Source: Escherichia coli (GTDB lineage Bacteria; Pseudomonadota; Gammaproteobacteria; Enterobacterales; Enterobacteriaceae). From it: 64,000 nucleotides of DNA. Both the position numbers and the translations under genes were made by a program. Below, in pieces: positions 32,183-34,495 of the stretch; the first letter of the stretch is position 1, and each line of letters begins with the position of its first letter. The DNA is taken from NCBI RefSeq assembly GCF_030013595.1, contig NZ_CP122768.1; one strand, 5' to 3'. The notes under the pieces are model-generated. The model did not search any database and was not told the origin of the DNA. It saw only the letters and a list, made by a program, of their open reading frames with translations.

Positions 32183-33616
32183 CTAATTATTCTGATAAAT
32201 ATCTTTATACAAACGGCTTTCAAAACGCACTAACGGAATACGGCGATTACGCTGATCCGCCGGTTCTACTGCATAGCCAGAAAGATATTGCACAAACGCC
32301 ATTCGTTGCCCGCTCGCTGTGGTAATGAATCCCGCCAGGTTATATACCCCCTGCAACGAACCGGTTTTCGCTGATACTTTTCCATCCACGCCCGCCTGAT
32401 GCAGACCTGCACGGTACTGCAAAGAGCCGTCATAGCCCGCCAGCGGCAGCATAGAGATAAAGTTAAGTTCATTGTCGTGTTGGGCTATGTATTGCAGCAC
32501 CTGCATCATGGTGGCGGGGGCAATCAGGTTATGCCGCGAAAGCCCTGAACCATCGGCAATAATGGTGTTACCAATATCGACAACGGCTTGCTGGCGCAGG
32601 ATCTGACGCACGGCGTCCGACCCGGCCCGCCATGTTCCAGGCACATTGAAGCGCGCATGGCCGATCATGCGGAAAACCGTATCGGCAATCATGTTGTCCG
32701 ACTTTTTCAGCATAATCTTAAGCAGATCGTGCAGCGGGGCCGACTGTTTACTGGCAACTACCGTTCCAGGTTCGTTAACCTGAGTCTGGCGCAGCAGTGT
32801 TCCACTCCAGGTGATACCCGCCTGTTTTAACTCATCTTTCAGAATTGCCCCGGCATAGCTGGCTCCATCCTGCACGGCAAAAGCCAACGGGAGCGGCTCA
32901 GAACGTTGCGGCAGGCATCCCGTCAGCGTAAAGCGGTTCAGGTCGCCTGGTACGACATCCAGTTCGCAGTATTGCGCTTCGGCAGAACCACGGGGGAGGG
33001 TGCGTACCTGGCTGAACATCGTAACGGGGTAATAAGATGCCACGCGTATAAAAGCCATATCACCAGGTTTTGGGGCACTGTAGAGCGAGACGGAGAAACA
33101 GTTGCGGTCAACTATGGCGGCGGCAGGCGGAGCGCTAAAGCATTGTGTCATGTCATTCCATGGCCAGCCGGGGGCTTTATCGTGGCTGGCGAAAATGGAG
33201 GTATCTATCAACACATTGCCATCGATTTGGTTGACGCCAGATTTTTTCAAAGTCGCGACCATATTGCGAATATCCTGACGTTTTAACGTCGGATCGGCAC
33301 CAAATCGCGCCACTAAGTCACCCTTAAGTACGCCGTTTTCCACATTACCTTTGGTTTCAAGCGTCGTGGTAAAACGAAAATCGGGGCCGAGTTGAATCAA
33401 CGCCGCTAGCGCTGTAATCACTTTCTGCGTACTGGCGGGCAGCGCCATCTGCTGACTGTGGTAATCAATAGCGGGGGCCGACGCGCCGACTTTTTGCACC
33501 ATCAGGGCAAGGTTGGCACCAGCGGGGAGTTGAGTAATATACTCATCAACATTTGCGGCCTGAACACTGAACGCTATACAGCTGGTCAATCCGATGATAA
33601 ATCTGGAAAATCGCAT
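32183..33616 (-). CDS. dacB: D-alanyl-D-alanine carboxypeptidase/endopeptidase PBP4
   Basis: 477-aa ORF with signal peptide and STQK active-site motif. Confidence 0.95.
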   Translation of the reverse strand: MRFSRFIIGLTSCIAFSVQAANVDEYITQLPAGANLALMVQKVGASAPAIDYHSQQMALPASTQKVITALAALIQLGPDFRFTTTLETKGNVENGVLKGDLVARFGADPTLKRQDIRNMVATLKKSGVNQIDGNVLIDTSIFASHDKAPGWPWNDMTQCFSAPPAAAIVDRNCFSVSLYSAPKPGDMAFIRVASYYPVTMFSQVRTLPRGSAEAQYCELDVVPGDLNRFTLTGCLPQRSEPLPLAFAVQDGASYAGAILKDELKQAGITWSGTLLRQTQVNEPGTVVASKQSAPLHDLLKIMLKKSDNMIADTVFRMIGHARFNVPGTWRAGSDAVRQILRQQAVVDIGNTIIADGSGLSRHNLIAPATMMQVLQYIAQHDNELNFISMLPLAGYDGSLQYRAGLHQAGVDGKVSAKTGSLQGVYNLAGFITTASGQRMAFVQYLSGYAVEPADQRNRRIPLVRFESRLYKDIYQNN

Positions 33617-33735
33617 AATCTCGCGCTAACAACCTGGAATCGAGCCGTCATACTACGGCGCAACGCCCTATAAAGTAAACGATGACCCTTCGGGAACTTC
33701 AGGGTAAAATGACTATCAAAATGTGAATTGTAGCT

Positions 33736-33769
33736 GACCTGGGACCTGTACCCGGGTCGGTATTTTTTT
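33736..33769 (+). terminator. Intrinsic terminator in the greA leader (GraL-type attenuator)
   Basis: 8-bp stem GACCTGGG/CCCGGGTC (one U-G pair) followed by T7, about 95 bp upstream of greA; the greA leader is known to produce terminated GraL RNAs. Confidence 0.55.
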
Positions 33770-33863
33770 GCTTCTGGTCCCGGTGAGGAGTTATGCCGGG
33801 CAGGCCGAACAGCCGGGGTGGGTGAAGACTTGCCCCATCAGGAATATTCAAGAGGTATAACAA

Positions 33864-34340
<477 letters not shown>

Positions 34341-34495
34341 GAATTACCCAATACTCAAGATGTTGATGTATTGTAAAGAAAGGAAAAAGGCCGCTATGCG
34401 GCCTTTTATCAACGAACAGAGCGTGGCATTTTGCTCTCCTGCCTGCGGAAAACCCCTCGTTTTACACAGCAAATGTGTGTAACTTTAGGATAATC

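Follow-up and report, generated by a model that had tools for sequence, protein, structure and literature searches.

How can GreA enhance termination at a terminator that has no antiterminator? This is the real question raised by the greA locus, and it was already posed by the authors who first described the element. As a factor that acts globally on transcription fidelity and against backtracking, GreA is kept at a level largely set by read-through of the GraL terminator in the leader of its own gene. Here we analyse a window of 64,000 nucleotides (by which we mean the whole stretch of DNA under study) from an E. coli chromosome with the gene order obgE-dacB-greA-yhbY-rlmE-ftsH. Our analysis indicates that the hairpin and U-tract at 33733-33773 are almost certainly the Rho-independent GraL terminator inside the greA 5' leader, and the source of the short GraL RNAs. 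As such the GraL terminator is an already known element, the K-12 system found in another E. coli strain. The sequence identity, the fold, the covariation, the bias towards one strand and the finding that no structure competes with the terminator come out of the present analysis; how GreA acts on it we infer.

The hairpin and its surroundings

On the plus strand, which is the coding strand of greA, positions 33736-33769 read GACCTGGGACCTGTACCCGGGTCGGTATTTTTTT, a GC-rich hairpin followed by an A and seven T. The initial annotation had placed a strong hairpin and T7 about 95 bp upstream of the greA ATG on this strand, and this is what the sequence reads, the T-run ending at 33769, exactly 95 nt before the ATG at 33864. 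Of the span that it gave for the terminator, 33736-33769, the end was right, while the start came 3 bp late: the stem begins at 33733, with three pairs below 33736 (G33733.U33761, C33734-G33760 and U33735.G33759) that had been omitted. The full element on the greA strand is GCTGACCTGGG-ACCTGTA-CCCGGGTCGGT-A-TTTTTTT-GCTT (Table 1).

Table 1. Coordinates of the greA leader, its promoters and its neighbouring genes in the window
Feature	Position	Strand	Basis or remark
obgE		+	neighbour; ORF list
dacB	32183..33616	-	divergent from greA; ORF list and RefSeq annotation
greA P1 (sigma-70): -35 ATGACC 33682-33687, 17-nt spacer, -10 TAAAAT 33705-33710	33682..33710	+	consensus scan; exact hexamers are our own assignment
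greA P2 (sigma-E): -35 GGAACTT 33693-33699, 16-nt spacer, -10 TCAAA 33716-33720	33693..33720	+	sequence; hexamers are our own assignment
P1 +1 (A33715, then U)	33715	+	from AUG = +150 and hairpin +19 to +48 (PMC6829880)
GraL RNA, longest P1 form	33715..33773	+	lengths from PMC6829880 mapped onto the window
P2 +1 (A33726, then A)	33726	+	11 bp downstream of P1
Terminator stem I, GCTGACCTGGG	33733..33743	+	scan, fold, covariation
Terminator loop ACCTGTA, 7 nt	33744..33750	+	C33746 is T in K-12
Terminator stem II, CCCGGGTCGGT	33751..33761	+	scan, fold, covariation
A33762, U7 (33763-33769) and GCUU (33770-33773)	33762..33773	+	3' ends spread here; AU7GCU2 in PMC2836576
Read-through part of greA leader	33774..33863	+	about one-third of transcripts in K-12
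greA CDS, 158 aa	33864..34340	+	ORF list; RefSeq annotation of identical DNA
yhbY		-	convergent with greA
rlmE		+	
ftsH		+	

The stem has 11 pairs, 7 of them G-C, and is the top-ranked terminator-like site in a local consensus scan; as in any intrinsic terminator, a GC-rich stem-loop stands directly before a U-rich tract on the transcribed strand. RNAfold gives the hairpin an energy of -19.6 kcal/mol (z = -4.05), and none of 200 dinucleotide shuffles was as stable. When both strands of the 64-kb window are searched for hairpins followed by at least six T, this one is the most stable, at -18.6 kcal/mol against -14.7 for the runner-up. Of eight block-shuffled windows, one gave a hairpin of -15 kcal/mol or better with at least six T after it; composition by itself is suggestive of a terminator, not decisive.

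On the coding strand, the hairpin has the start sites of P1 and P2 before it and the greA AUG after it, and the upstream gene, dacB, is divergent. We could therefore reject the idea that it terminates an upstream gene, since there is no co-directional upstream gene needing a terminator. A bidirectional terminator was rejected as well, because the minus strand has no T-run after the hairpin. Many complete E. coli chromosomes share the surrounding 341 bases with 100% identity, and this region is present in 5425 of 5426 genomes, where it is annotated as dacB and greA. The 247-bp dacB-greA intergenic region matches that of MG1655 at 244 positions, the differences being 33746 in the loop, and 33785 and 33836, both downstream of the terminator. 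No GraL feature was present in the RefSeq record of MG1655 or in the other RefSeq records that we inspected; the window should carry a GraL/greA-leader feature.

The loop base 33746, C in the window and T/U in K-12, is thus the only GraL difference from K-12, stem and tail being identical. The predicted hairpin energy is the same for both alleles, -18.6 kcal/mol. A 61-nt GraL region identical to the present one, with this allele, was found in only 84 of 5399 E. coli genomes, and C at this position also occurs in E. albertii and Citrobacter. On this sequence comparison, the minority C33746 allele may be ancestral.

Two further observations concern DNA upstream of the leader. A sigma-70-like match, TTGGCA-16-TAATAT, lies at 33513-33540 on the plus strand, inside dacB in antisense orientation; it is probably meaningless, since the region holds just as many matches of this kind as expected by chance. 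The NDM-5 plasmid pAMR2684_NDM-5 (NZ_AP050513.1, 32198-40543) carries a chromosomal rplU-rpmA-yhbE-obgE-dacB' segment in which dacB is truncated by IS26; the greA leader is not included, and this copy is irrelevant to the GraL finding.

Correspondence with K-12 GraL and conservation across species

The Rfam model RF01769, 'Enterobacteria greA leader', matches 33647-33768 over its full length (model positions 1-124 of 124) with 125.8 bits and E = 4.5e-24, the gathering threshold being 60 bits. Potrykus et al. 2010 described the K-12 element as an intrinsic terminator in which an 11-bp stem is followed by AU7GCU2 (PMC2836576), and the window has the same 11-bp stem, GCUGACCUGGG / CCCGGGUCGGU, then A, U7 and GCUU. 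The identification with GraL leader RNA that had initially been made from the sequence is thereby borne out. Locus, promoters, stem, A-U7-GCUU tail and distance to the greA AUG all agree with K-12 GraL as reported (PMC2836576, PMC6829880); what differs is the U at the K-12 loop base and the substitutions at 33785 and 33836 downstream.

In K-12, transcription of greA comes from two promoters, which overlap and lie 11 bp apart, P1, mapped as dependent on sigma-70, and P2, which in vitro depends on sigma-E (PMC2836576). In numbering from P1, the greA AUG lies at +150 and the hairpin at +19 to +48 (PMC6829880). Carried onto the window, this numbering places the hairpin at 33733-33762 and the ends of the P1 RNAs, reported to be 49-59 nt long (PMC6829880), at 33763-33773, which is exactly the U7-GCUU tract. 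The initiating dinucleotides found in vitro, ApU for P1 and ApA for P2 (PMC2836576), agree with the window, where 33715-33716 is AT and 33726-33727 is AA. The P1 and P2 elements are present and identical to those of MG1655, the evidence of their activity being K-12 data. The elements that we assign to P2 fit the sigma-E consensus. Across 23 Enterobacterales, TAAAAT, GATGACC, GAACT and TCAAA are nearly invariant.

GraL has been seen in K-12 both by Northern blots and by in vitro transcription, though from a single copy it was barely detectable on a Northern blot in 2010 (PMC2836576). The RNAs have 3' ends that cover a range of about 10 nt, and in vitro they do not respond to Gre factors (PMC2836576). 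Termination in vivo was 66% by lacZ fusions, and in vitro it was about 60% (PMC2836576); for K-12, the expectation that most transcripts stop before the gene is therefore right. Termination efficiency was reported to be constant over growth. The spread of 3' ends is set by the bottom three pairs of the stem, through both their pairing and their sequence, and swapping them gave one dominant band and 3.6-fold less read-through (PMC2836576). Could the length array arise by transcriptional slippage in U7? We rejected this, since the pAswap mutant keeps U7 and yields one main band (PMC2836576).

The initial annotation had also expected a short leader RNA ending near 33769. Term-seq data from K-12 bear on this: the 3' ends listed by Adams et al. 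2021 include one at MG1655 3328811(-), -96 from the greA start (PMC7815308, supplementary file 3), with 65,239 mean reads in the LB OD 0.4 sheet and 61,204 in a second condition. Mapped through the MG1655 locus, this end corresponds to window position 33768, the sixth T of T7 and P1 +54. Term-seq thus reports one dominant 3' end, against the array of 10 in the description of GraL, a discrepancy whose source may be peak calling. We found no paper linking 'GraL' with 'Term-seq'; the evidence sat in the supplement of Adams et al. under greA. From the near-identity of the two leaders we infer that the K-12 behaviour, both termination and GraL production, would carry over to the present strain.

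How does GraL compare with canonical intrinsic terminators such as lambda tR2? The likeness lies in the GC-rich hairpin, the U-tract and release by RNA polymerase alone. However, the length of the GraL stem is unusual (in a survey of 148 terminators, 12% had 11-bp stems; PMC2836576), an A stands between stem and U7, the 3' ends extend over about 10 nt rather than 2-3, and the terminator is located in a 5' leader rather than at the end of a gene.

Conservation was assessed by a species scan, taking one genome per species with GreA, which yielded 80 gammaproteobacterial loci. In 22 other Enterobacterales loci, RF01769 has a match upstream of greA. We aligned the sequences with MAFFT, blind to structure, in two sets of 22 (A2) and 23 (A4) sequences. 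In A2, 87% of stem cells are paired, and pairs with changes on both sides number 9 of 11 in A2 and 10 of 11 in A4. None of 500 shuffles of A2 reached the observed covariation measures, and when the stem partners are slid against each other pairing falls to 24-59%. Covariation across species settles the reality of the hairpin. Its orientation is conserved too: among gammaproteobacterial greA loci with a divergent upstream gene, a hairpin of -10 kcal/mol or better with a T-run occurs within 250 nt upstream on the coding strand in 28 of 34, and on the opposite strand in none of the 34.

Beyond the pairing, part of the stem is kept in sequence. The internal wobble U33740.G33754 remains U.G in 19 of 23 Enterobacterales and has not drifted to C-G or U-A, and in the CCUGG/CCGGG core of the stem both the pairing and the sequence itself are conserved. 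Such a kept stem sequence would fit recognition of sequence, and both observations agree with the report that an arm swap abolishes GreA feedback while termination persists.

The Pasteurellaceae present a comparable arrangement at greA. In these loci (L031 557-668; also L026, L029, L033, L035 and L045) the upstream gene is divergent and a promoter-like TTGCTA-17-AATAAT is conserved; a coding-strand hairpin with a T-run lies about 30 nt before the greA ATG, its arms differing between genera while staying complementary. Four of the loci have a match to Rfam RF02904 (AaHKsRNA69) a short way upstream, on the strand of the hairpin. RF01769 gave no match at the Pasteurellaceae greA leaders, and our literature search found no experimental data on their hairpin. 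As at GraL, then, a terminator-like hairpin stands on the coding strand downstream of a divergent gene, but its sequence is unrelated and its distance from the AUG is about 30 nt instead of about 100 nt. It may be a sequence-unrelated GraL analogue.

GreA feedback and the question of a competing fold

What would happen at this terminator during transcription? In the explanation that we favour, transcription would begin at the overlapping P1 (sigma-70, A33715) and P2 (sigma-E, A33726), the 11-bp hairpin would form after only 18 nt (P1) or 7 nt (P2), and RNA polymerase would release the RNA within the A-U7-GCUU tract, as has been shown in K-12. There, about two-thirds of the RNAs end as GraL, 49-59 nt long from P1 or roughly 37-50 nt from P2, and one-third go on through the 90 nt that remain before greA, this read-through setting greA expression. 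The terminator works without an antiterminator fold. GreA enters as negative feedback, more catalytically active GreA giving more GraL and less read-through, and the feedback depends on GraL in cis, with the stretch from +1 to +18 and both arms of the hairpin, and probably on a further factor too.

The feedback part of this scheme draws on Dylewski et al. 2019, who reported that GreA lowers the activity of fusions to its own leader about 3-fold, whatever the promoter, and that GraL abundance increases with GreA (PMC6829880). Catalytically active GreA is needed, the D41A mutant failing, and so is GraL in cis, namely the stretch +1 to +18 together with the sequence identity of both hairpin arms, whereas the downstream leader, Hfq, Nus factors and sigma-E are dispensable (PMC6829880). 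In particular, a deletion downstream of +59 left GreA autoregulation unaffected (PMC6829880); in the window, the read-through leader (33770-33875) folds no better than shuffled sequence, with z = -0.67. GreA feedback was not reproduced in vitro (PMC2836576, PMC6829880), and it is for this reason that a further factor is suspected.

One way in which GreA could enhance termination is that GraL is an attenuator without an antiterminator, one that reads the state of RNA polymerase directly. Here the long stem, the wobble pairs at its bottom and the A-U7-GCUU tract would allow polymerase to shift to and fro across about 10 positions, and GreA-stimulated cleavage, together with a partner, would return complexes to a termination-competent register. 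If this were true, termination efficiency would report GreA activity, and the positional analogues in Pasteurellaceae would point to repeated evolution of this logic. However, GreA has no such effect in vitro, and we hold this reading to be a tentative and rather unlikely one.

A classical attenuator, in which an antiterminator formed by the upstream leader competes with the terminator, is far less probable still, and we would be very surprised to see it established. In its favour, RF01769 contains five helices upstream of the terminator and matches the window over its full length, Naville and Gautheret 2010 credited the greA leader of enterobacteria with 'a clear antiterminator structure' (PMC2965389), and the region upstream of the terminator is very strongly conserved. 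For both Rfam and Naville and Gautheret, the leader RNA takes in as much as about 120-200 nt of sequence before the T-run (PMC2965389). However, the candidates of Naville and Gautheret were delimited from the boundary of the upstream gene, with no start-site data (PMC2965389). The RF01769 model begins 68 nt upstream of the P1 start (33647-33714), and its five helices (33647-33717) lie almost wholly in untranscribed promoter DNA. The published antiterminator is not compatible with the mapped start sites.

Folding leads to the same result. Leaving out the 3' arm from the P1 and P2 transcripts, or keeping it unpaired during folding, brought up no competitor; the best fold that avoids the terminator has -0.2 kcal/mol, against -19.6 kcal/mol for the terminator itself. 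The terminator is also the preferred fold of hypothetical longer transcripts that would start at 33647 or 33617. For a mutually exclusive structure of the kind found in attenuators and riboswitches, only 18 or 7 nt precede the hairpin, and no such structure appeared in them. The same 18 nt (AUCAAAAUGUGAAUUGUA) are all that a leader peptide would have before the stem: they contain an AUG-UGA at 33721-33726 that has no room for a ribosome-binding site, and this start-stop is not conserved in other species. In the 23 Enterobacterales, the five upstream Rfam helices have no pair changed on both sides and break where the sequence is variable, while all 10 covarying pairs of the RF01769 structure sit in the terminator. 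Only the terminator helix of RF01769 is supported as RNA structure. Dylewski et al. likewise found that the leader does not behave as a classical attenuator or riboswitch (PMC6829880). The initial description of the locus as a GraL leader attenuator thus stands as far as the leader terminator is concerned and is not supported in the sense of a classical antiterminator; GraL is an 'attenuator' only in the loose sense.

What, then, is conserved upstream? The pattern consists of a nearly invariant ATACTA at 33650-33655, a variable 18-nt spacer and a fully invariant block, AAAGTAAACGATGA, at 33672-33685, which is as expected of promoter hexamers. Read on the minus strand, TTTACT-18-TAGTAT is a plausible candidate for the dacB promoter, back to back with the -35 of greA P1. 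The 5' two-thirds of the RF01769 model thus appears to be divergent-promoter DNA and not RNA structure. The 14-nt block AAAGTAAACGATGA is more conserved than the promoter hexamers, and a shared regulator site there is conceivable.

Leaders of this general kind are known elsewhere. The rimP leader (Naville and Gautheret 2010, PMC2965389) likewise has a conserved leader terminator stem and no alternative fold, and for both leaders regulation is presumed to act via a protein or the state of RNA polymerase. The gene and the sequence differ, however, and so does the presumed effector, NusA for rimP against GreA and a further factor for GraL. A second relation is to the SreA riboswitch of Listeria (cited in PMC6829880), whose terminated leader acts in cis and in trans. 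GraL has been reported to act in trans too, with nudE the likely target (PMC6829880); this trans action is the authors' report, and in contrast to SreA, GraL has no ligand-binding aptamer.

Other readings of the GraL RNAs, and a hairpin downstream of greA

Two further explanations accept the hairpin and deny that it terminates transcription by itself, and we consider both of them scarcely credible. According to the first, GraL RNAs are products of processing or decay, and the hairpin blocks 3' exonucleases or stabilises the mRNA. Ragged 3' ends over about 10 nt do resemble exonucleolytic nibbling. However, the same array appears in purified in vitro transcription, where the RNAs are released from immobilised templates (PMC2836576). 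Moreover, rnc or rne mutations have no effect on GraL RNAs, the 3-bp swap at the stem base collapses the array into one band, and adding the terminator to lacZ fusions costs them about two-thirds of their activity (PMC2836576).

According to the second, termination in the leader depends on Rho, with the hairpin only incidental. Rho termination typically leaves imprecise 3' ends, and Dylewski et al. still allow a conditional role for Rho in GreA feedback (PMC6829880). Against this, RNA polymerase alone terminates in vitro (PMC2836576), and the 18 nt of RNA before the hairpin are too short for a rut site. In the data of Adams et al. the K-12 3' end at 3328811(-) has a Rho score of 0.67 ('No'), that is, no significant Rho region, and it scores 5.2 as an intrinsic terminator, above the threshold of 3.0, the Rho score being based on Term-seq and DirectRNA-seq with and without bicyclomycin (PMC7815308). 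For basal termination, Rho is refuted.

That the hairpin and T-run are a chance occurrence with no function, as the one shuffled window in eight might suggest, can for practical purposes be dismissed in view of the covariation, the strand bias of 28 against 0, the Rfam match and the direct experiments in K-12.

A different hairpin lies at the other end of greA. Between the convergent greA and yhbY, at 34385-34407, the sequence AAAAGGCCGC-TAT-GCGGCCTTTT forms a perfect bidirectional hairpin, followed by only four T on the plus strand. In the K-12 Term-seq data, a 3' end on the yhbY strand is at the equivalent of 34382, and 3' ends on the greA strand are at the equivalents of 34511 and 34587, inside yhbY in antisense orientation. 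Transcripts of greA may thus read through this hairpin and overlap yhbY.
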